This document shows, in pieces, positions 426 through 10,026 of a stretch of 33,781 nucleotides of DNA. The DNA comes from an uncultured Clostridia bacterium (GTDB lineage Bacteria > Aerophobota > Aerophobia > Aerophobales > B3-G15), in the NCBI GenBank assembly GCA_964482715.1, contig CAYZYX010000020.1:1-33781 (forward strand), in the 5' to 3' direction. Positions within the stretch are counted from its first letter, which is position 1. Every line of letters begins with the position of its first letter. A program made the translations under genes and the position numbers. The notes under the pieces were generated by a model. The model worked only from the letters and a program-made list of their open reading frames with translations. It was not told the DNA's origin and did not search any database.

Positions 426-2126
426 TTATTTTTGTTCAACCATCTCCTGGGCTAATTTGAGTGCCTCTTCTTTTTGCCTGATTTTACCAGCGATTTGTGC
501 CTCGTGTATTTTCTTCAAAATTTTTGATATCTGAGGACCAGCCGGTATTCCCAGCGTATTGATAAGTTCTTCTCCGGATACTAATTTGGGAGGATTTAAA
601 ATTACTGAACGTTTCTTGAAAAAAACTGAAAGTATTTCAACAAGGGCTCTCATCCAGACTGAACCCTCAGGTTGAGCAGCAATTGCTGTAAGACAGATCT
701 CCACCGTTTCTTTCCCTGATAGGGAAAAAAATTCACATATTTTGGTGGAGTCAGGAGACTGGTCCTTCAATTTTTGCAACACAGGAGTAAGATTTGTGAT
801 CTTTTGAATAAATTTTACCTCTTTGTTCCCCAGTTTTAATGCTTTGTGTGCTGTTTCTACCAATTTCTCGTTTTTTTCAAAAGAGAAGATTAAATTGATT
901 AATCTTAAAAGTTGTATTCTGCTTCTGTGTCCCACTTTTTCTTGCAAGTGATCAAGAATTGGCGGTTTTAATGAGTAAAGCGGAGACTCTTCGGAGTTTA
1001 AGATCTTTTCAAGGCGAATCAAATTTTCCGGATAGCAAGGTAAATTCAATATTTCTTCAAACAACTTCCGAGCACAGGGTTGGTTTATGTGTTCACTACT
1101 GGATGAATAACTTAAAATAAGGAAGATTTCTTCCTTAATTCTCTCTCTGGCAACCTGATTTATGAGCTTATATTTATGAAGTATCATATCCAGGGTTCCT
1201 TCGTCGAGTTCAAAATCAAATTGTGTCTGGAGCCGAAAAGCTTTTAACATTCGCAAGGGGTCAACATCAAAAGCCTCAGGACTGACCAGCCTTATCTTAC
1301 CATTTAAGAGATCTTCCAGGCCATCTTTGAGGTCAATAAGACACAAATTGGGGCTTTCTACGTAATCCAGATCAAGGGCAAGAGCATCAATAGTAAAATC
1401 TCTTCTTTTCAAGTCAGATTTAATGTTCGTTTTTTTTAGGGTAAAGTCTAACTGATATCCATTCGGAAGAACAACCCTTACCAGATTTTCGTCTAAATAA
1501 ATGGGAGAGCTCTGATAACTGTGGGCAAATGGTTCTATTAATTTAAAGTCAGCACTATCCAGGATAAAATCAAAATCTCTACTTTCCCTGCCCAGAAGAC
1601 TGTCTCTTATAAATCCTCCCACGAGATATATCTTTTCACTTTGCTTAAATTTAATAAGAGAACTCAGGATAGGGTCATTTAGTCTTTTCTTAAGGTAGGT
1701 CCATTGGAGGGAACCATCTATGGCCCTTTCTCTGCGGATTCTATCTAATATTCCATTGACAAACTTCCCCGAATCAGAGGTCCCGTAACGCTTTGCTATT
1801 TCTACCGCTTCATTTATGCTCACTATTGAAGGTATATCTTCAACGAGGAGAAGTTCGTATATGCTGAATCGCAGGATATTTCGGTCAACAACGGCCATCC
1901 TTTCCAGAGTCCAGTTTTTGGCATAGGTCTTAATGAGCTCATCAATGCAGGGAAGATAATTTTCTGTTCCTTTTACGATCCTTCTGGAAAAATCTTCTAC
2001 CTCTTGTCTGAAGTGATATCTGGATAGAAGTTCCTTTAGAGATTGAGAGGGAGAAATTTCCCTGACATCAGCCTGATAGAGAGTCTGTAGTGTAAATTCT
2101 CTGGCCTTGCGTCTGTTTTTCATCAC
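426..2126 (-). CDS. nusB: Fusion: N-terminal transcription antitermination factor NusB + class II tRNA nucleotidyltransferase (CC-adding-like)
   Basis: aa 1-132 show NusB motifs (RRKARE..LQTLYQ, WTLERMAVVDRNILR, INEAVEIAKRYG, FVNGILD). From aa ~166: LVGGFIRD..DFDF, DLKRRDFTIDALA, GLEDL..KIR, DPLRMLKAFR, ERIKEE, C-terminal GEEL..LGIPAGPQI. Confidence 0.9.
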   Translation of the reverse strand: MMKNRRKAREFTLQTLYQADVREISPSQSLKELLSRYHFRQEVEDFSRRIVKGTENYLPCIDELIKTYAKNWTLERMAVVDRNILRFSIYELLLVEDIPSIVSINEAVEIAKRYGTSDSGKFVNGILDRIRRERAIDGSLQWTYLKKRLNDPILSSLIKFKQSEKIYLVGGFIRDSLLGRESRDFDFILDSADFKLIEPFAHSYQSSPIYLDENLVRVVLPNGYQLDFTLKKTNIKSDLKRRDFTIDALALDLDYVESPNLCLIDLKDGLEDLLNGKIRLVSPEAFDVDPLRMLKAFRLQTQFDFELDEGTLDMILHKYKLINQVARERIKEEIFLILSYSSSSEHINQPCARKLFEEILNLPCYPENLIRLEKILNSEESPLYSLKPPILDHLQEKVGHRSRIQLLRLINLIFSFEKNEKLVETAHKALKLGNKEVKFIQKITNLTPVLQKLKDQSPDSTKICEFFSLSGKETVEICLTAIAAQPEGSVWMRALVEILSVFFKKRSVILNPPKLVSGEELINTLGIPAGPQISKILKKIHEAQIAGKIRQKEEALKLAQEMVEQK

Positions 2127-2201
2127 CGGAACCTTTCACTTTTTATGTTAAAAGAACGTTTGGAAAAATTATGGAGTTCCAACAAAAGTCTGGATGGAAA
2201 T

Positions 2202-2283
2202 AACTTAATACACATTATTCAGTTTGTCAATAGGCCTTATTTTTCAAGAAGTTTCTTGACACTTTTTTTTATCCTGCTATTCT
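2202..2283. promoter_or_regulatory. Back-to-back divergent sigma70 promoters
   Basis: Minus: TTGACA (2230-2225), 17 nt, TAAGTT toward nusB fusion. Plus: TTGACA (2256-2261), 16 nt, TGn-TATTCT (2278-2283) toward phosphatase. Confidence 0.5.
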
Positions 2284-2319
2284 CCTTTGAGAACCTAAAC
2301 TAACAGCAGGGAGTATAAA

Positions 2320-3240
2320 ATGGATCCTTTGCAACTTGCTCGGGAAGCCTCTATCTCAACTTTTTTGGAGATGCAATCACTTTTAAAAGAAGCAATCCAT
2401 AAACTGAGAACAGAAAAAGAAAAGAGTAAAATTGGTATCCATAAGCTAAAAGGAGGTCTTGTTGAACTTAGTACTCGGGGGAGAGCTATCGTTGTGGGAG
2501 ACCTTCATGGAGATCTGGAAAGTCTTATAACTGTTCTCTCAAGAAGCCAGTTTATGAAAAAAACTCGGGAAAATGAAACCTATCTGGTATTTCTGGGAGA
2601 TTATGGAGATAGAGGGGAAGAAACACTCGAGGTTTATTGGGTAGTTTTAAAGTTGAAACTGATTTTTCCAGAAAATGTAGTCCTTCTGCGTGGAAATCAT
2701 GAGGGACCTCCAGACTTAGGGGTTCACCCCTTTGATTTACCCTATTTTTTAAGACAAAAGTATGGACCCAAATGGCAGGAGCTTTTTCCTTTATTTCCTG
2801 AGCTATTCAATACTCTTCCTTACGCTGTTTTTGTTCCCGAGAGATATCTTTTGGTTCATGGAGGACTTCCGGTAAATATTAGTTCCATTGAAGATATAGA
2901 AAAGGCTTTCTCCAACCATCCGACTAAAGACCATTTAACCCAGATTCTCTGGAATGATCCCGGAGAAATTGAAGGGTTCCTTCCATCTCCTCGAGGTGCG
3001 GGAGTGATTTTTGGGAGAGATGTATCGGAAAACATTTTAAAAAAATTAAAGGTAAAAACGCTTATCCGAAGCCATGAACCCTGTAATGGCGTTATGGTGG
3101 CTCACCAGGGAAAAGTGTTAACCCTTTTTTCTCGTAAGGGTGCTCCTTACTATAATGATCAGGCAGCCTACCTTACTATTGATCTCTCTGCTCCAGCTAA
3201 AGATGCCTTTCAACTTGCCCGGGAAGCACATCTGTTTTAG
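2320..3240 (+). CDS. PPP-family Ser/Thr protein phosphatase (calcineurin-like metallophosphoesterase)
   Basis: GDLHG, GDYGDRG, LRGNHE, HGG, LWNDP, SPRGAG..FG, IRSHE, TLFS motifs; RBS AGGGAG upstream. Confidence 0.92.
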   Translation: MDPLQLAREASISTFLEMQSLLKEAIHKLRTEKEKSKIGIHKLKGGLVELSTRGRAIVVGDLHGDLESLITVLSRSQFMKKTRENETYLVFLGDYGDRGEETLEVYWVVLKLKLIFPENVVLLRGNHEGPPDLGVHPFDLPYFLRQKYGPKWQELFPLFPELFNTLPYAVFVPERYLLVHGGLPVNISSIEDIEKAFSNHPTKDHLTQILWNDPGEIEGFLPSPRGAGVIFGRDVSENILKKLKVKTLIRSHEPCNGVMVAHQGKVLTLFSRKGAPYYNDQAAYLTIDLSAPAKDAFQLAREAHLF

Positions 3241-3260
3241 TAGTTCAAAATGGCGTGGAC

Positions 3261-3289
3261 TTGCTCACATCTTTCTTTTATGCTAAACT
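3261..3289 (+). promoter_or_regulatory. Putative extended -10 promoter of the AAA+ ATPase operon
   Basis: TTGCTC (3261-3266), 17 nt, TGn-TAAACT (3284-3289); RBS GAGGAG before ATG 3318. Confidence 0.4.
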
Positions 3290-3317
3290 ATAACAAAAAT
3301 TAACCAGAGGAGAAAGT

Positions 3318-5129
3318 ATGAATTACCCCGAATTGATACAGAGAATAAGAAAACTTCCTTCACCTAAAATATATAAAAATTCTACCGAAGTCTGCCGGGT
3401 AAAAGGGGTTTCTCTTAATTTATGGGATGTGATCACGGCAGCTGTTATCTCAGGATTGAACATCCTTATCGTGGGTGAAAAGGGAGAGGGTAAAACTCAG
3501 TTAGCTCTGGAAATAAACAACACCTATTTTGGAGGAAGGGGTACCTTTATCAGAGCTCACCCTGATTTAAAAACGAGAGATATATATACGGCTCTCAGTC
3601 TGGAGAAACTGTCTTCAGCGCGTGGAGATACCCACGAGGCTTTGAAAATAGTAGAGTCGGTGAGAAATCCCCTCACCATACTTGATGAAATAAACAGAGT
3701 TCCCCAGATAACTCAAAATCAGGCACTTTCAATTTTAGATGGATACATAACTGTTCCCGAGCGAAACGAAAACGTGTTCTTTGGAATTGATGGTTTTCAT
3801 ATCGGGGTAGCCACTGCCAATCTGGGGAGAAGTTATTCGGGAATTTTTCCTTTTGATCCTGCTTATCTTGATCGTTCACATCTTATTATCAATGTGGATA
3901 ACTTTCCGCCCACCACTACTGATCTTATTAAGATTCAGCAGCAGGACATAAACCCTCGTCTGGAAAAACCTGATCAGGAAGACTGCACTGATGAAATAGT
4001 TGCTATATGGAAAAGTTTGAGCGAAATGAGTCTTGCCCTTGATGGTTTAATAGCAGACCTCTACCTGAAAAAGAATCTTGACTTTTGTGTTAAATCTCCA
4101 ACAAAAAGAAAAAGCACTGTCAGGGATGATATTCCCAATATGTGTCAGGGTTGTTCTTCGGAGGGGAGGGAAGGGGGGTTATCCGAAGTTTGTGGATACG
4201 TTGTTCCCACCAGTACTCGTTCATTTAAAGCATACAAAGCTCTTGCTTTTGGACTTTGTGCCGTAGCTGATGCTAAATCCACTAATCCTACACCAGCTCT
4301 TCCCGGATACGCTGAAGTCCTGGAGGCTTTCAGAATTACAGGCCCTTATTCTGGAATACTCGATTCTGCCTGGATAAGACGTGACCATCACGGAAATCCT
4401 TATCTGGCTGTTGATTTTCTTTATCATCGGATTAAAGAAGACTTGGAGGCAAGGATTGATTATATTAAAAAGGGTTTCTCTGATGCTATTGCTGGAAGGC
4501 TTACACGAGATTCTATAGAGGCTCTGGGCGAAGAGTGGTTCTGGCTGGAAGAGATATTAAACGAAATAAACCTCATAGCCAGAAATAGTTCGGGAAGATT
4601 GGTTGAAGAGATTAAAAGCAGGAAGATACTTTATACTCAGGATTTCTGGATTGCAAGCCTCCTGCATCCGGATCAGACGCTTTTTGGTGAGAGTATCACT
4701 CAGTTAACCTACGGACAGGATATGGGAGAAAAGATAAGAGAAAAGCTGGACAGTATGTACGGTATAGCTTTCGCTACAGAAGATGGAATCTACATCTGGT
4801 ATGAAGGTATGAATGAACCTAAAAGAATATTTGAACTTCCCAGAGAGAGATTTAAAAAGAAAGAGATAAAAGGTCTTGCTTTTGTAAGAGGGAAACTTCT
4901 TTTTGCCATAGGAAATGAAATCTATGATATTGATAATCCAGAGGTTCCTCTCCTTAGTACCTCAAGCCCCGTTCAGGCTTTAACTCAAAGTGGAGACGTC
5001 CTGTTGGGAGCCGAAGAGGCTAAAATCTGGGTTTCCCGTGAAGGGAGAAAACGAGAGATTATGATTCCCTGGCAGAAAAAAGTTACAGCTGTTCTCTCGG
5101 CTCCCGTATATAAACTAAAGAGATTTTAG
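3318..5129 (+). CDS. MoxR-like AAA+ ATPase with Cys cluster and C-terminal beta-rich extension
   Basis: Walker A GEKGEGKT, Walker B ILDEINR, sensor ATANLG, DPAYLDRS (Arg finger); VWA gene starts 2 bp after its stop. Confidence 0.85.
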   Translation: MNYPELIQRIRKLPSPKIYKNSTEVCRVKGVSLNLWDVITAAVISGLNILIVGEKGEGKTQLALEINNTYFGGRGTFIRAHPDLKTRDIYTALSLEKLSSARGDTHEALKIVESVRNPLTILDEINRVPQITQNQALSILDGYITVPERNENVFFGIDGFHIGVATANLGRSYSGIFPFDPAYLDRSHLIINVDNFPPTTTDLIKIQQQDINPRLEKPDQEDCTDEIVAIWKSLSEMSLALDGLIADLYLKKNLDFCVKSPTKRKSTVRDDIPNMCQGCSSEGREGGLSEVCGYVVPTSTRSFKAYKALAFGLCAVADAKSTNPTPALPGYAEVLEAFRITGPYSGILDSAWIRRDHHGNPYLAVDFLYHRIKEDLEARIDYIKKGFSDAIAGRLTRDSIEALGEEWFWLEEILNEINLIARNSSGRLVEEIKSRKILYTQDFWIASLLHPDQTLFGESITQLTYGQDMGEKIREKLDSMYGIAFATEDGIYIWYEGMNEPKRIFELPRERFKKKEIKGLAFVRGKLLFAIGNEIYDIDNPEVPLLSTSSPVQALTQSGDVLLGAEEAKIWVSREGRKREIMIPWQKKVTAVLSAPVYKLKRF

Positions 5130-5131
5130 GT

Positions 5132-7009
5132 ATGGATTATAGAACCCTCCAGTATGAACTTACCGGTATAAATAATTTACTTGGTCTCAGTGAGGATTCA
5201 GTCAAAGTTTTACCGGTAAAACCTTCCCGTGGTCACATTGAGGTAAGATTAATTTCTTCTCTGCGTCAGATGCAGATAAATATAGATGAAGACTGGAATA
5301 TAAATCGAGACCCTGACCTGAGTCTCTACCTTAGTAAAAGTTATCACGATCATCCTCTTTTTGAGATGAGTAGAGACCTCCTCTGCAACAACATAGCCCA
5401 TGAGCAGTTCTGTCCAGGTTCTATTGAATATCATCATAAACTCATGGATGTTGTGGCCAAAATCCTGGAAAAGAAAGGAAAAGCCTCTCAAACTTCCTAT
5501 GTGTGCCATAGTTTGGAGGATATAATTGCCAATACCTGGTGTAAGCTCAATTTTGGGCATTTTAAGGGCATGGTAATATTTTTTTATGATCAACTTTCCA
5601 TTCCTTCGGATAATTTATCCGCATTTTCTTTACTGGGAAAAATACTTAAGATTATTCCCGCTCATCGGAAAATAAGTACTCCTTATGAAGTTTTTCTCCG
5701 GGTAAATCTTGCTCTCTGGGGAGAAGAAGATGATTTCTCATTTTTGGGAAGATTTTTTTCCCACCGCAGAGAAGTTGAAGAGAGAGTAAATAGGATTCTT
5801 GATATATTCCGTTTGCAAGACAGCGTTACTCTGGAGGAAAAGGTAGAGGTTCTTTCTGATAGGTCGCGATGGGAAAAAATTGTTCAGAGATTTTCTCTTT
5901 TAATGGCGGACTTATTGGATGAAGAATGTCCAGAGAAACTGAGTTGTGAAAATTGGTTTGAAAAGGAAATAATGAACGAAGAAACAAGAAAAAGATTTAT
6001 CAAAAAAATGTACGAACAGGGTAAAGAAAAGCCTCATTATGTTAATAGTCTGGAGATCACCAAGACTCTTTATGAAATCCTCTCACCCGAGATTCCCATC
6101 CAGGTTGATACCGAGAGAAGAGGAAGAGCTATGCCCGTTGTGCCTTTTAACTATGACCCCTTTGATCCTGCAGTTCACTCTCGAGAAGATATAGATCTTG
6201 GAGGTGTATTGATAGACCCGGAAAGTCCTTTTTTCAAAATGGTCAATTTTCGTGTTCCGAGATACCATTATGATCTTTTTATTCCCTACAGGGCTGAGCG
6301 AAAGGGGGCTTTTCCGGACATATGCTTTCTTATTGATACCTCAGCTTCTATGGCTGATGATGTTGAAGGAAAGATTTCCATTCAGACTATTGGAATGGCA
6401 AAAAGACTTATAAAATCAAGATTTTACTTTGGAGAAGGGAGACATTCCTGGAGTGATAAGAGTAAGTACCACCATGTTTTACTGGGATTCAATGGTGCAA
6501 TTAAATGGCTTCAGTCTCATGGAATAGCTCCCTATATCCGTTACAATGTAATCACTTTCTCTCGGGATACTCTCACCAGTGGTTGGAGGGAATATTCCGA
6601 ACTTGATGAATGCAAAAAAATAGCTTATTTACCTCAATTTGATACGACTCTGATTGATTACAGGGTTATTGAACAACAGCTTTTAAGGAGAGAGCCTTTT
6701 GTGCTTATTATACTCTCAGATGGAGAGATCTTTAACTGGGATGATTCTACTAAAGCTTATTCTCCTCACCGTTTGAGGGATTTTATAAGAGGGATAAGAC
6801 CGGTGAAAAATCTTTTTAAACAAATAGTGGAAAACAACATGGTTTCCCATATTCAAATTAGCGAAGGTGATTTTAAACCTCGAATTTCCCAGTTGACCTG
6901 CCAGGATCTCTCTGATTGGGGAGCTGAGATATACAGGATAAACGATATAAATCGTCTGGAGTCTCTTATGATTAGAATAACCCGCAAAGTTATGATTCCC
7001 TATCTGTAA
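5132..7009 (+). CDS. VWA (MIDAS) domain protein, probable partner of the MoxR ATPase
   Basis: C-terminal DICFLIDTSASM (DxSxS), NVITFS, DTT, IILSDGEI motifs; about 390-aa N-terminal region. Confidence 0.82.
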   Translation: MDYRTLQYELTGINNLLGLSEDSVKVLPVKPSRGHIEVRLISSLRQMQINIDEDWNINRDPDLSLYLSKSYHDHPLFEMSRDLLCNNIAHEQFCPGSIEYHHKLMDVVAKILEKKGKASQTSYVCHSLEDIIANTWCKLNFGHFKGMVIFFYDQLSIPSDNLSAFSLLGKILKIIPAHRKISTPYEVFLRVNLALWGEEDDFSFLGRFFSHRREVEERVNRILDIFRLQDSVTLEEKVEVLSDRSRWEKIVQRFSLLMADLLDEECPEKLSCENWFEKEIMNEETRKRFIKKMYEQGKEKPHYVNSLEITKTLYEILSPEIPIQVDTERRGRAMPVVPFNYDPFDPAVHSREDIDLGGVLIDPESPFFKMVNFRVPRYHYDLFIPYRAERKGAFPDICFLIDTSASMADDVEGKISIQTIGMAKRLIKSRFYFGEGRHSWSDKSKYHHVLLGFNGAIKWLQSHGIAPYIRYNVITFSRDTLTSGWREYSELDECKKIAYLPQFDTTLIDYRVIEQQLLRREPFVLIILSDGEIFNWDDSTKAYSPHRLRDFIRGIRPVKNLFKQIVENNMVSHIQISEGDFKPRISQLTCQDLSDWGAEIYRINDINRLESLMIRITRKVMIPYL

Positions 7010-7031
7010 AATTTCGCCTGTGAGAATTTAC

Positions 7032-7487
7032 ATGAAAGTTAAAAAAGTAAAAGATTTTATGAACACTCAGATAGTAAGTATAAAAAGAGCTACACCGATT
7101 GGAGAAATTGCCCGCATTTTTCTCACCCATGGTTTTGACTTTTTACCTGTGGTCGATGAAGAAAATCATCTGCTGGGTGTAATTACTAAAAAGGATATTC
7201 TTGCTCCCTTTATTCCCGAGTACTTTGAACTTTTAGACAGCGTGGATTTTATTTCCGATTTCGGTTCACTGGAATCCTCTGTTACAGAGACTTTAGAACA
7301 CTTACTTGTGGCTGAAGATATAATGATAAAGGATCCCATAACTATTGATGAGGAAGCCTCTCTTTTTAAAGCCATAGCCTTAATATCTCATCATAAGGTC
7401 AGGCATCTTCCGGTGGTGAGGCAGGGAAAAATTGTGGGAATAGTTAGTCGGACTGATATTTTAAGAGCGATATTTGAAGACAAATAA
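7032..7487 (+). CDS. CBS-pair domain protein
   Basis: Two CBS repeats (VKDFM..LPVVDEENHLLGVITKKDIL; AEDIM..LPVVRQGKIVGIVSRTDIL). Start is ATG 7032 or GTG 7020. Confidence 0.92.
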   Translation: MKVKKVKDFMNTQIVSIKRATPIGEIARIFLTHGFDFLPVVDEENHLLGVITKKDILAPFIPEYFELLDSVDFISDFGSLESSVTETLEHLLVAEDIMIKDPITIDEEASLFKAIALISHHKVRHLPVVRQGKIVGIVSRTDILRAIFEDK

Positions 7488-7496
7488 AATAAAGAG

Positions 7497-8672
7497 TTAA
7501 ACTTTTTCAATTCTTTTCAATCGGAGATTTCCGGATAATCCCTTCAGTCTAAGTGTAAGAAAAAGAAAAGCAGCAATAATCAAAGGTAAAAGTGTCCAGC
7601 GAAAAGAAACTCTCAATCCCCATCTATCGGCAAGAAAGCCAAATACAGCCGGGGCAATGGCTGTAACCATGGTATCCAGACTCATTCCTATCCCGAAAAT
7701 CTTTCCCTGAATTGTGTGTTGGCTTGCTTGAGATAACCAGATGTTCTGGGGTGGGAAAAAACCAATATGACAGATTCCCACAAGGAAAAGTAAAAGCACT
7801 GTTAAGAGAAGAGGCAGGCTAAAGGTGATAAATAGTATTGCTGGCAAAACTATTAAAAGAAGTGCAGCAATTATACTTAGCGGATGATTTTTGTCTGAAA
7901 GCCATCCGGTAATAAGTGAACCAATTACCCCTCCAGCAAAGATTAATCCTGAGAAATAAGATGCTGTTTGAATACTTAAATTTAAAGTATCCACGATAAA
8001 AAGAGGTACAAAAGAAACAACCCCGATCATTCCCAGAGTTCTAAGAGTTCTTGCTGTAAAAAAAGTGGTTAAGATAAAAGGGGGATATTTAATTTTCGAT
8101 TTTTCTACAGTTGAGGGTAAATCTGAATAGTCTGTTCGATAGAAAAAGTAGGCAAGTGGTATCCCAAAAAGAGCTATCAAAAAAGATATTACTCGCCATT
8201 CGATCAGATTAATCACCAGACCAAAAAGATACATCATTAATACAATCCCTGCACTTCCAGCTGCTTCAAAAATACCGAAAATTATACCCTTCTTATACCT
8301 GTAACGCTGATTAAGCAGAGGTGGAGCCAGAGAATGAAAAGTGCTAACTCCTACTGCTGCTATACCGAGTAAGATGAGAATGAAGGCAAAAGAATTAAAA
8401 CCCACCAGAAGAGTAAATCCAGCAGAAGTAAGAAAAAATCCCAGAGAGATTATTTTTTCTTTACCATATTTGTCCCCGAGATGACCGGTTATAAAGGAGA
8501 AAATCGCAATTATAAAAGTATAAAAGGTAAGAAGCAATCCACTTTGAGTGTAGGTCAGTTCAAACTCTTTTTTCAAAAGTGGCAGGATAAGGGGAAGAAA
8601 AAGCCAGAAAATATCGTTGTACCCATGTCCTATAGAGATTAAAAAAAGTGGATGCCTTGGTCTTTTTTTCAT
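7497..8672 (-). CDS. Major facilitator superfamily transporter (Fsr-like)
   Basis: About 12 hydrophobic segments; motif A GHLGDKYGKE and GWLSDK; N-terminal GHGYND and STFH typical of the Fsr-like group. Confidence 0.88.
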   Translation of the reverse strand: MKKRPRHPLFLISIGHGYNDIFWLFLPLILPLLKKEFELTYTQSGLLLTFYTFIIAIFSFITGHLGDKYGKEKIISLGFFLTSAGFTLLVGFNSFAFILILLGIAAVGVSTFHSLAPPLLNQRYRYKKGIIFGIFEAAGSAGIVLMMYLFGLVINLIEWRVISFLIALFGIPLAYFFYRTDYSDLPSTVEKSKIKYPPFILTTFFTARTLRTLGMIGVVSFVPLFIVDTLNLSIQTASYFSGLIFAGGVIGSLITGWLSDKNHPLSIIAALLLIVLPAILFITFSLPLLLTVLLLFLVGICHIGFFPPQNIWLSQASQHTIQGKIFGIGMSLDTMVTAIAPAVFGFLADRWGLRVSFRWTLLPLIIAAFLFLTLRLKGLSGNLRLKRIEKV

Positions 8673-8929: not shown

Positions 8930-10026
8930 GGAAAATACATGAAGATCTTTGGCCGGGAAAACTTCATCATTGAACTTCAGGATCATCTTCTACCAGAAGA
9001 ATACGAGTTAAACTTGAGACTCTTTGATCTTGCCTCAAGGCTTCATCTTCTTGTTGTTGCCACCAACGATGTTTACTATGCAAAGCCTACCCAGCATGAG
9101 ATTCATCAGGTCCTTGTTAGAGCAGCAAAACTCATCCATCACCGTGATATTGTAGAAAAGAAAAGTCCTGAGTATTACTTAAAATCATACCATAAGATGG
9201 CAAGTGTATTTACAAGATATCCCTTTGCCCTTTTTAACACAGATCTTATTGCAAGGGAGTGCAACTTAGAGCTTCCCCTGGGTAAAATCAGGTCTCCTGG
9301 GTTTTTAAGTAAAGATAATGCCCACCACCAGCTTGCAAAGATCTGCTTTCAAAACCTCCCCAAAAAATACAAGTCTCCCTCAAGAGAGGTTACAAGAAGG
9401 CTTATAAGAGAGCTTAAGATAATAAAGGAAAAGGGATTTTCCTCTTACTTTCTCCTGGTTCAGGACATTGTTAAATTTGCCAGGAAAAAGGGTATAAAAT
9501 GTCAGGTAAGAGGCTCTGCATCAGGTTCACTTGTTTCTTATCTTACCAGTCAGCTTATCTTAAGGTTTACTTTCCAGAAGAGTTTTACCTTGCTATCTTA
9601 AACAACCAGCCAGGACTTTATCCTCCAGGTGTTATCTTAAATGAGACAAAAAGATGTGGTATACCCATACTTGGTTTTAGCTTCACAGGACATCCAATTG
9701 AACTTTTCAGGAAAGCTTTTAAGGGGAAAAATAGGATAAAAAGTGGTAAGCTTACATCTCTAAGAGAAAACGAGAGAGTGGAAGTTGCCGGTGTAAAGAT
9801 AATCCTTCACACACCACCAACAAAAAGCGGGATAAGGGTTATCTTTTTAACACTGGAGGATGAGGAGGGTTTAATTGATGTTGTGGTTTTTCCTTCAGTG
9901 CAGGAGAAGTTTGCCAGGACCATCTATGAGGCTGATTTTCTCTTTTTGGAAGGCTACATTAAAAAACACGGCTCTTTAAGCTCACTGGTGGTAGAAAAGG
10001 TATATGACCTGCAAACCATGGTATAA
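8930..10026 (+). pseudogene. dnaE2: Internally deleted DNA polymerase III alpha (DnaE2-like) remnant
   Basis: PHP part (IELQ, VATNDVYY), then RLIRELKII..GFSSYFLLVQDIV..RGSASGSLVSY; frame change to SYQSAYLK..FY.AILNNQPGLY; jump to LGFS.TGHP and OB fold (PPTKSG..FLTLEDEEG). 5' end and catalytic core absent. Confidence 0.88.

Follow-up and report, generated by a model that had tools for sequence, protein, structure and literature searches.

A 33,781-nucleotide stretch of contig CAYZYX010000020.1 (assembly GCA_964482715.1; the whole stretch is referred to as the window), from an uncultured bacterium of the Aerophobetes, encodes a MoxR-like AAA+ ATPase and, directly after it, a protein with a von Willebrand factor A (VWA) domain. 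The gene for a PPP-family phosphatase lies in front of this pair and the gene for a stand-alone CBS-pair protein lies behind it. The functional unit is probably (at a probability of roughly 0.6) the two-gene operon of ATPase and VWA protein, a rare and divergent MoxR/VWA remodeller of the peptidase-like/VWA kind, with the phosphatase and CBS genes as mere neighbors. A preliminary description of the locus had read all four genes as a single phosphorylation- and energy-state-linked remodelling module. Its notion of an unnamed, divergent MoxR/VWA module with unusual domains stands, but the unit appears to comprise two genes rather than a phosphatase/CBS-linked four. Genomic neighborhood analysis does not support the larger module: outside the window's own family (f1), the phosphatase gene is linked to the pair in 0/5 evaluable loci, and the CBS gene accompanies the pair in only 3/9 evaluable loci.

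Conservation of the ATPase/VWA pair

The long-form ATPase gene (positions 3318-5129, + strand, 603 aa) ends with a TAG stop codon at 5127-5129 and the gene for its VWA partner (5132-7009, + strand, 625 aa, with a putative zincin-like remnant at the N-terminus) starts with the ATG at 5132, leaving 2 nt between them. The phosphatase gene (2320-3240, + strand, 306 aa) lies upstream and the CBS gene (7032-7487, + strand, 151 aa) downstream, so that all four open reading frames (ORFs) share the + strand, with intergenic gaps of 77, 2 and 22 bp. The last of these gaps depends on the start codon chosen. The VWA gene stops at 7007-7009, and the CBS ORF, open from 7020, could begin at GTG 7020 (10-nt gap) or at ATG 7032 (22-nt gap); the ATG is the likelier start because both linked orthologues begin with MKIKKVKE. 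The co-orientation and the short spacings reported earlier, 2 bp between ATPase and VWA genes and 10-22 bp before the CBS gene, are all confirmed by the ORF coordinates.

The neighborhood survey covered 41 genomes, 31 of them from the same order as the window, and the DNA flanking each locus was mapped by tblastn. The genomes are incomplete metagenome-assembled genomes and close kin, and the presence/absence counts are descriptive only. In 10/10 other Aerophobetes loci with downstream sequence, or 11/11 with the window included, the VWA gene follows directly on the ATPase gene at a distance of 1-31 bp; one further Aerophobetes locus ends inside the ATPase gene. As already suspected from the window, the two genes therefore form a tight, conserved module. 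The linkage extends beyond the phylum: among relatives found through the ATPase, a VWA relative lies at most 3 kb downstream of the ATPase gene in 8/8 loci outside the Aerophobetes, seven of them archaeal (labeled Nanoarchaeota, Woesearchaeota, Hydrothermarchaeota and Methanosarcinales) and one from the Hydrothermales. The Woesearchaeota locus L060 holds fragments only, a 227-aa ATPase ORF and a 193-aa VWA ORF, and in the Hydrothermales locus L062, where WYL-domain and SLOG genes lie next to it, the pair is broken up over a number of short ORFs.

A second, short pair (ATPase ∼435 aa, VWA ∼375 aa), which lacks both extra domains of the long pair described below, is present in the window's genome and in at least five relatives. 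The short genes are adjacent in 5/5 loci (L032, at G000:C9:6153-8578 on the - strand, and L033-L036), and their products are ∼40% (ATPase) and ∼32% (VWA) identical to those of the long pair. A Mut7-C RNase gene precedes the short pair in 3/3 scanned loci, and a ThiS-family gene follows it in L033. A quick maximum-likelihood tree of 57 ATPase cores, with SH-aLRT as the only support measure, groups the long-form ATPases in one clade (support 100), sister to an archaeal clade (support 82), and places the short forms in a clade of their own (support 100), next to a Nanoarchaeota locus with many GXGXG proteins.

Gene order in the sister archaeal loci runs from the ATPase through an unannotated 243-aa protein and the VWA protein to a P-loop kinase-like protein, together with a divergent, likewise unannotated protein of 320-325 aa. 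In the archaeal loci L054, L055 and L061, the HExxH/VWA gene is followed by one or two P-loop dNK/TMPK-like kinase genes; a 389-aa ORF between the ATPase and VWA genes of L054 aligns poorly and may be miscalled. Archaeal locus L053 has three GXGXG (PF01493) paralogues between ATPase and VWA genes, and in archaeal loci L057 and L059 the VWA gene is immediately followed by one GXGXG gene; these two loci also have a gene for a B12-binding radical SAM protein upstream and one of the histone-deacetylase family downstream. GXGXG (PF01493) has no match in the window's genome.

The MoxR-like ATPase

Sequence and structural comparisons agree in presenting the ATPase as a catalytically intact AAA+ protein of the MoxR type (helix-2-insert clade). 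The residues assigned to Walker A (K59), Walker B (E124), sensor-1 (N168), the Arg finger (R186) and sensor-2 (R301) are invariant in 40/40 aligned members. The AF2 model (pLDDT 77.6) resembles the MoxR-family structure 2r44 (VIA Z 22.7, 301 aligned residues, root-mean-square deviation (rmsd) 3.7) and RavA (3nbx, Z 19.8), with further VIA matches to BchI (Z 15.9), MCM (∼15), CbbQ2 (12.4) and NorQ (11.4); 2r44 is also the top Foldseek match (E 6.5e-9).

At the level of curated families, the Pfam model AAA_5 is reached with 30 bits against a cut-off of 22, and Sigma54_activat and AAA_14 also match at E <= 0.01. The MoxR-proper model AAA_3 (PF07726) finds no match in the ATPase at E <= 0.01, and the ATPase of the short paralogous pair reaches it with 29.1 bits against a cut-off of 27. 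NCBIfam, which we take to hold models for MoxR subfamilies (RavA, CbbQ/NorQ, MRP and others), returns no family at E <= 0.01 for either the ATPase or the VWA protein, and Pfam detects no MoxR-subfamily-specific extra domain in either. Judged by these curated Pfam and NCBIfam models, the pair matches no named MoxR subfamily, which agrees with the earlier assessment. Of 1.84 billion representative sequences searched with phmmer, only 308 are relatives at E <= 0.001, and 159 pass E <= 1e-10; almost all measure 410-470 aa. Searching the PDB by sequence, whether with a single protein or with a profile, gave nothing useful, and the ATPase matches in PHROGs are weak (E 4.4e-5 to 0.004).

Two further features of the long-form ATPase stand out. 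The first is an insert in the lid region with four cysteines (C257, C276, C279 and C292; positions 4086-4193, + strand), each present in 23/24 sequences of the close alignment (A1) and in 27-30/40 of the wide one (A3). The four cysteines are a hallmark of the family and a candidate zinc site, in a part of the model (residues 257-289) where confidence is low. The second is a C-terminal extension that starts with the linker motif PDQTLFGES (residues 451-459; 4668-4694, + strand), conserved as P-x-Q-[TI]-[LI]-F-[GA]-[DE] in 15/15 long-form ATPases. It leads into a beta-rich domain that resembles propeller blades in the model (residues 480-599; 4755-5114, + strand) and occurs in Aerophobetes long forms only: the relatives of 410-470 aa lack it, and only the Aerophobetes long form extends past residue ∼446. 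The domain is without a Pfam match. One structure in the VIA match list covers it, the nidogen YWTD propeller 1npe_A (Z 9.3, 112 aligned, rmsd 3.2, rank 41), over three blades' worth. A complex prediction of ATPase residues 447-603 with VWA residues 1-300 scored 0.03 against a mark of 0.32 and is evidence for neither side.

In locus L026 (G001:C5, 6333-8142), the long ATPase gene is broken near residue 530 into ORFs of 535 and 84 aa, with one TAA inside the match; the interruption is either a sequencing error or the mark of a decaying gene.

The VWA partner and its N-terminal domain

Neither Pfam, its VWA models included, nor NCBIfam matches the VWA protein. Its fold is recognizable by structure: residues ∼390-625 adopt a VWA fold in the VIA comparison (Z 15.1 to 12), in which the matches include the VWA domain of NorD (9qh8, Z 12.7), BchD (Z 12.4) and the metal ion-dependent adhesion site (MIDAS) domains of Rea1/MDN1, and Foldseek concurs. 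The domain (6299-7006, + strand) carries an intact MIDAS (D402-x-S404-x-S406, T506 and D530) whose five residues are invariant in both VWA alignments (A2 and A4). The protein ends with this domain.

The N-terminal ∼270 residues are mostly helical and without a Pfam match. They include a degenerate zincin motif (5381-5533, + strand) composed of N86-N87-x-x-H90, which reads N86-N87-I-A-H90 in the window, C94-P95 and E129-D130-x-x-x-N134, and this motif aligns with HExxH...GCPTD...AFEDxxxN. The intact series, HExxH followed by GCPTD and AFEDxxxN, is present in 8/8 relatives outside the Aerophobetes, counting two database homologues. In the Aerophobetes, 18/18 long forms lack the Glu, which is replaced by Asn in 13 and by Gln in 5, and the first His is an Asn in 16; H90, C94, P95, D130 and N134 are retained. 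Because the HExxH is intact outside the Aerophobetes and its Glu is replaced in every Aerophobetes long form, the N-terminal domain looks like a zinc-peptidase-like module that has lost catalysis in this lineage.

The archaeal VWA partners (596-626 aa) align with nearly the whole window protein at 26-32% identity, which argues that the N-terminal domain is ancestral to the family. The preliminary description had regarded both partners as carrying atypical extra domains. Such domains are indeed present on both proteins, but that of the VWA protein is no local oddity and is common to the family; only the C-terminal domain of the ATPase is specific to the Aerophobetes.

The phosphatase and CBS genes as syntenic neighbors

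The phosphatase itself is readily classified. It matches Metallophos in Pfam (E 1.6e-27), carries the PPP motifs GDLHG (residues 60-64), GDYGDRG (93-99) and GNHE (125-128), and retrieves 93 PDB sequences at E <= 0.001, among them PP5/PP1/PP2A chains at E 1.9e-31 to 1e-25; by these matches, it is a eukaryote-type PPP-family Ser/Thr phosphatase. Its two termini repeat a short helix-like sequence (MDPLQLAREA at the N-terminus, AFQLAREAHLF at the C-terminus), and the orthologues have similar ends.

Within f1, the PPP gene lies at most 1.3 kb from the pair in 7/7 loci. Six of these, the window included, have it directly upstream of the ATPase gene with a spacer of 64-100 bp, and in the seventh (G003) the two are separated by an aldo/keto reductase gene. 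Outside f1, the PPP gene lies away from the pair in 5/5 evaluable loci: an orthologue with 53-54% identity sits on another contig, among other genes, in G019, G028 and G024, and none was found in G010 or G011. Across the 31 same-order genomes, PPP occurs in 26 and the ATPase in 13 (the window's own genome included); 11 genomes have both, 2 the ATPase alone, 15 PPP alone and 3 neither. One f1 genome, G006, has PPP and no detectable pair.

The CBS gene, whose product is a CBS pair (Pfam E 8.6e-36, in two stretches), is even less constant. It follows the VWA gene in 3/9 evaluable loci, those of G000, G004 and G002 only, and an unlinked orthologue lies on another contig in G019; with this query, no orthologue was found in G005, G003, G001 or G011. 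Beyond the Aerophobetes, 0/8 loci have a PPP or a CBS match at the thresholds used. The phosphatase is thus distributed independently of the pair and is a neighbor kept by synteny among close relatives, not an obligate part of the system, and the CBS protein is likewise a syntenic neighbor in close relatives and not an obligate part of the pair. The preliminary description would have counted its four-gene reading as refuted if PPP and CBS were unlinked to the pair in other genomes and the pair also belonged to a characterized MoxR subfamily; elsewhere, both genes prove to be unlinked, but the pair does not fall in a characterized subfamily.

The constancy of PPP in f1 leaves room for a weaker form of linkage, in which the pair is autonomous and PPP (in f1) and CBS (in three genomes) were recruited as lineage-specific regulators or clients. 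The strict adjacency in 7/7 f1 loci and the preserved length of the PPP-ATPase spacer in the six directly adjacent loci speak for such a partial link. However, the f1 genomes are close relatives (their ATPases are 73-83% identical), and inherited gene order alone can explain the adjacency; G006 keeps PPP without a detectable pair, and G003 tolerates a reductase gene between the two. A recruited role for PPP or CBS is rated as unlikely.

Promoter-like elements

The gap between the phosphatase and ATPase genes contains a promoter-like element at 3261-3292 (+ strand), composed of TTGCTC (3261-3266), 17 nt and the TG-extended -10 sequence TGCTAAACT (3281-3289). Read by eye, TTGCTC-17 nt-TAAACT agrees with 7/12 consensus positions. 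The block TGCTAAAYTATA (3281-3292) is invariant in 6/6 f1 loci in which PPP is directly adjacent. When the PPP-ATPase gaps of these six genomes are aligned, they share an invariant tttnTGCTAAAyTATA, preceded at 17-nt spacing by cTTGyC, which together read as a -35 hexamer and a TG-extended -10. The 12-mer TGCTAAAYTATA is found nowhere else in the fetched loci; its one occurrence in the window does not exceed chance when taken alone (expected 0.44), and the evidence lies in its conservation. In G003, a copy with two mismatches stands before the ATPase gene, though the upstream gene there is the reductase. TTGACA and TAAAAT can be read by eye before the ATPase gene of G011 and G028.

Because the block is conserved in the f1 gaps and is kept in G003 behind a different gene, the ATPase/VWA pair looks like an autonomous transcription unit with its own promoter, so that the genes at 3318-5129 and 5132-7009 are probably driven from 3261-3289. 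The separate promoter-like element that had been pointed out between phosphatase and ATPase genes is thus upheld, by the invariant block in six loci and by its variant in G003.

A sigma-70-like promoter match also precedes the phosphatase gene (2256-2283, + strand; TTGACA-16-TATTCT with a TG ahead of the -10). With 10/12 positions, it is the best site found in 2100-7700 by a generic promoter scan, which overall did not exceed chance (10 sites against 11.9 expected) and returned no site in the PPP-ATPase gap (3241-3317).

Proposed mechanism

The gene linkage, the catalytic residues, the two folds, the loss of the zincin motif and the independence of the PPP and CBS genes are direct observations of this analysis. 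Beyond these, a capture-and-remodelling mechanism is proposed from the residues present here and by analogy with characterized pairs. Capture of a client by the MIDAS is modeled on the way CbbQ/CbbO, NorQ/NorD, RavA/ViaA and Rea1 are thought to work, following the part of Kaur et al. 2020 (PMC7159879) drawn on here. The ATPase presumably forms a hexameric ring, and the MIDAS of the VWA protein would grip a client, whether protein or peptide, by an acidic residue. The ring would then use ATP hydrolysis to remodel or release the client held at the MIDAS. An archaeal partner with an HExxH might, in addition, cut the client. The Aerophobetes ATPase, for its part, would have acquired roughly three blades of a propeller at its C-terminus, possibly as an extra docking surface. 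As the catalytic Glu is lost, the Aerophobetes module would most likely act as a non-proteolytic remodeller or assembly factor.

Comparison with known systems

The closest architectural counterpart is found in the DUF2201_N/DUF2201 pairs (PF13203, 'putative metallopeptidase', and PF09967, 'VWA-like'), which likewise combine an AAA_5 ATPase with a protein in which an HExxH-type domain at the N-terminus precedes a VWA domain of the MIDAS type. All five DUF2201 genes examined (5/5) adjoin an AAA_5/AAA ATPase gene. Comparison by hhalign with seven DUF2201_N proteins aligns HExxH...A.D..iN at 30-38% probability (E 3.3e-4 to 5.4e-4), and the DTSGS and GGT...DG regions of DUF2201 are collinear, though weakly so. 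In an Atlas feature search with the N-terminal domain of the VWA protein, clusters of DUF2201_N (0.86) and CobT (0.90) were listed, which serve as leads only.

There are also differences. The VWA protein of the window's family is longer (∼600-625 aa; the seven DUF2201 proteins have 376-599 aa), and its Aerophobetes members lack the catalytic Glu and mostly the first His. Unlike the ATPases of the DUF2201 pairs, that of the window's family has the four-Cys insert and, in the Aerophobetes, also the C-terminal propeller-like domain. Judged by titles and abstract openings, the DUF2201 papers retrieved include no functional study. We know of no function assigned to the peptidase-like/VWA class.

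With CbbQ/CbbO, NorQ/NorD, RavA/ViaA, BchI/BchD and CobS/CobT, the window pair has in common the ATPase fold, the catalytic residues and an adjacent gene for a MIDAS VWA protein. It differs from these characterized pairs in lacking sequence-level membership and in its accessory domains, and no client gene, for example for Rubisco, cNOR or a chelatase H/CobN subunit, lies beside it.

A further likeness concerns the MoxR-vWA beta-propeller ternary conflict systems (Kaur et al. 2020, eLife, PMC7159879), which, in the sections of that paper used here, also feature a MoxR-vWA couple, a short propeller of few blades and a vWA protein whose long N-terminal region is alpha-helical. In those systems, as these sections present them, the propeller belongs to a third gene, whereas the window has no such gene and the propeller-like fragment is part of the ATPase. 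The window ATPase has no match at E <= 0.01 to the corresponding Pfam model, bpMoxR (PF20030); two archaeal ATPases match it weakly (E 5.5e-4 and 6.9e-4), below the cut-off. A search of PADLOC-DB 2.0 at E <= 0.1 returned no family for any of the four proteins.

Genomic setting

The pair's neighbors in the window are the PPP and CBS genes, an MFS gene and a gene for a NusB-CCA fusion, and genes elsewhere in the window encode housekeeping proteins (SecA, UvrC, BamA, a Clp ATPase, PurA, DnaB and SerA). The window contains no kinase gene, as had been remarked earlier, and Pkinase (PF00069) is also unmatched across the 94.7%-complete genome.

Divergent to the phosphatase gene, a single 566-aa ORF (426-2126, - strand) encodes a complete NusB domain (residues 6-132, E 3.2e-35) fused to a nucleotidyltransferase of the CCA-adding/poly(A) polymerase type that matches PolyA_pol head and tRNA_NucTran2_2; the fusion appears unusual. 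Downstream of the CBS gene, two overlapping ORFs of 220 and 175 aa (8939-10026, + strand) match only model positions ∼165-370 and ∼948-1073 of DnaE (DNA polymerase III alpha). The DnaE models are ∼1,150 positions long, and the two ORFs resemble a gene remnant that has lost a large internal part and changed frame.

Weighing of the alternatives

Several observations weigh against an autonomous two-gene remodeller of the peptidase-like/VWA kind. The zincin-like fold of the VWA N-terminal domain was assigned from analysis of the whole protein and is provisional, as is the propeller-like assignment of the ATPase C-terminal domain, which comes from a whole-protein model. Homology to DUF2201 has a low probability in hhalign and is unproven, though architecture and pairing are alike; PF13203 and PF09967 match neither the window VWA protein nor six archaeal relatives, even at E up to 10. 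The pair's own promoter is deduced from sequence conservation, and the unbroken adjacency of PPP in f1 makes a functional link restricted to that lineage conceivable. Finally, the pair's neighbors change with lineage (PPP, Mut7-C RNase, GXGXG proteins, P-loop kinases), and it occurs in only 13/31 same-order genomes; such turnover and patchiness are also seen in conflict systems.

A more specific alternative would see in the family an undescribed AAA+/MIDAS/zincin machine that recognizes a terminal peptide, Q-x-F-F-[G/D]-[D/K], and that has been turned in the Aerophobetes into a self-tethered, non-proteolytic remodeller. Its starting point is the motif Q-x-F-F-[GD], which stands at the extreme C-terminus of the 320-325-aa proteins in 3/3 sister archaeal loci and at the N-terminus of the 243-aa protein encoded between ATPase and VWA genes in 2/2. 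In all ORFs of at least 80 aa from 24 loci, the pattern occurs 25 times, six of them near a terminus, and 5/6 of the latter are in these archaeal proteins. The linker motif of the long ATPases has the same form and is placed where the sister clade has its gene between ATPase and VWA. From this short motif and the gene order comes the idea that the C-terminal domain of the ATPase arose by fusion.

Direct comparisons do not bear the fusion out. Alignment of the C-terminal domain with the archaeal 243-aa protein reaches an hhalign probability of 2.4%, and with the GXGXG proteins 0.5%, so that both were rejected as its source; an hmmsearch of the archaeal ORFs with a profile of the domain found nothing significant, the best E (0.013) falling in an unrelated ORF. 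The terminal-motif scan of the window's genome, over all 2,460 ORFs that reach 80 aa or more, gave 18 occurrences, two of them near a terminus, and no candidate client; the two near-terminal matches (in ORFs of 100 and 140 aa) are probably due to chance. A tail-recognizing machine is an unlikely reading.

Two other readings were discarded. The 320-325-aa proteins had appeared CYTH-like by eye (EIExK, LQLEIEY), but a PDB profile search gave 0 matches at E <= 10 and Pfam no support. The C-terminal tails of the CBS proteins (IFEDK, LFSEEK and IFGE, with IFPL in the unlinked orthologue) bear a vague likeness to Q-x-F-F and are probably the end of the CBS helix.

The shifting surroundings of a constant core would also suit a biological-conflict (defense) system of the MoxR-vWA 'ternary' type, with lineage-specific third components as sensors or effectors. 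Patchiness, the presence of two old paralogous pairs in one genome and the weak bpMoxR matches of two archaeal ATPases point the same way, as does the propeller-like domain, which recalls the beta-propeller class in the portion of Kaur et al. 2020 (PMC7159879) referred to above. However, the four third components that define ternary systems in that portion of the paper are all absent here. None of the four proteins has a PADLOC match, no effector domain is recognized, and the chromosomal setting is one of housekeeping genes. Neither a tblastn search of 50,697 phage records with both proteins nor a pattern scan of IMG/VR found a relative. Further, relatives occur in loci labeled Nanoarchaeota and Woesearchaeota, lineages with very small genomes. 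Together, these points make a defense role distinctly unlikely.

Equally little is left of a four-part system in which dephosphorylation by PPP and adenylate sensing by CBS would control the remodelling machine: co-oriented genes with short gaps, PPP upstream in 7/7 f1 loci, CBS within 22 bp in three genomes and a kinase-like gene after the VWA gene in 3/3 sister archaeal loci, which makes a loose phospho/nucleotide theme recur, are outweighed by the separation of PPP and CBS from the pair elsewhere, by 15/31 genomes with PPP and no pair and 2/31 with the reverse, by the conserved promoter-like element that stands between PPP and ATPase genes and accompanies the ATPase gene in G003, and by the lack of a Hanks-type kinase in the 94.7%-complete genome, so that this reading is very improbable.

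Implications

For annotation, the two-gene reading means that the phosphatase and CBS genes should not be labeled as parts of the system. To our knowledge, few AAA+ machines with unknown clients are as widespread as the MoxR/VWA pairs. The Q-x-F-F-G terminal motif of the archaeal loci offers a concrete candidate for a recognition peptide. Should the peptide reading be true, the ancestral machine would have recognized, and possibly cut, protein tails, and in the Aerophobetes the motif would mark the junction of a fused propeller-like domain on a machine whose peptidase has been inactivated. The family as a whole provides a natural contrast between archaeal members with an intact HExxH and Aerophobetes members with a dead site and an added ATPase domain, a contrast that could reveal whether proteolysis belongs to the mechanism.

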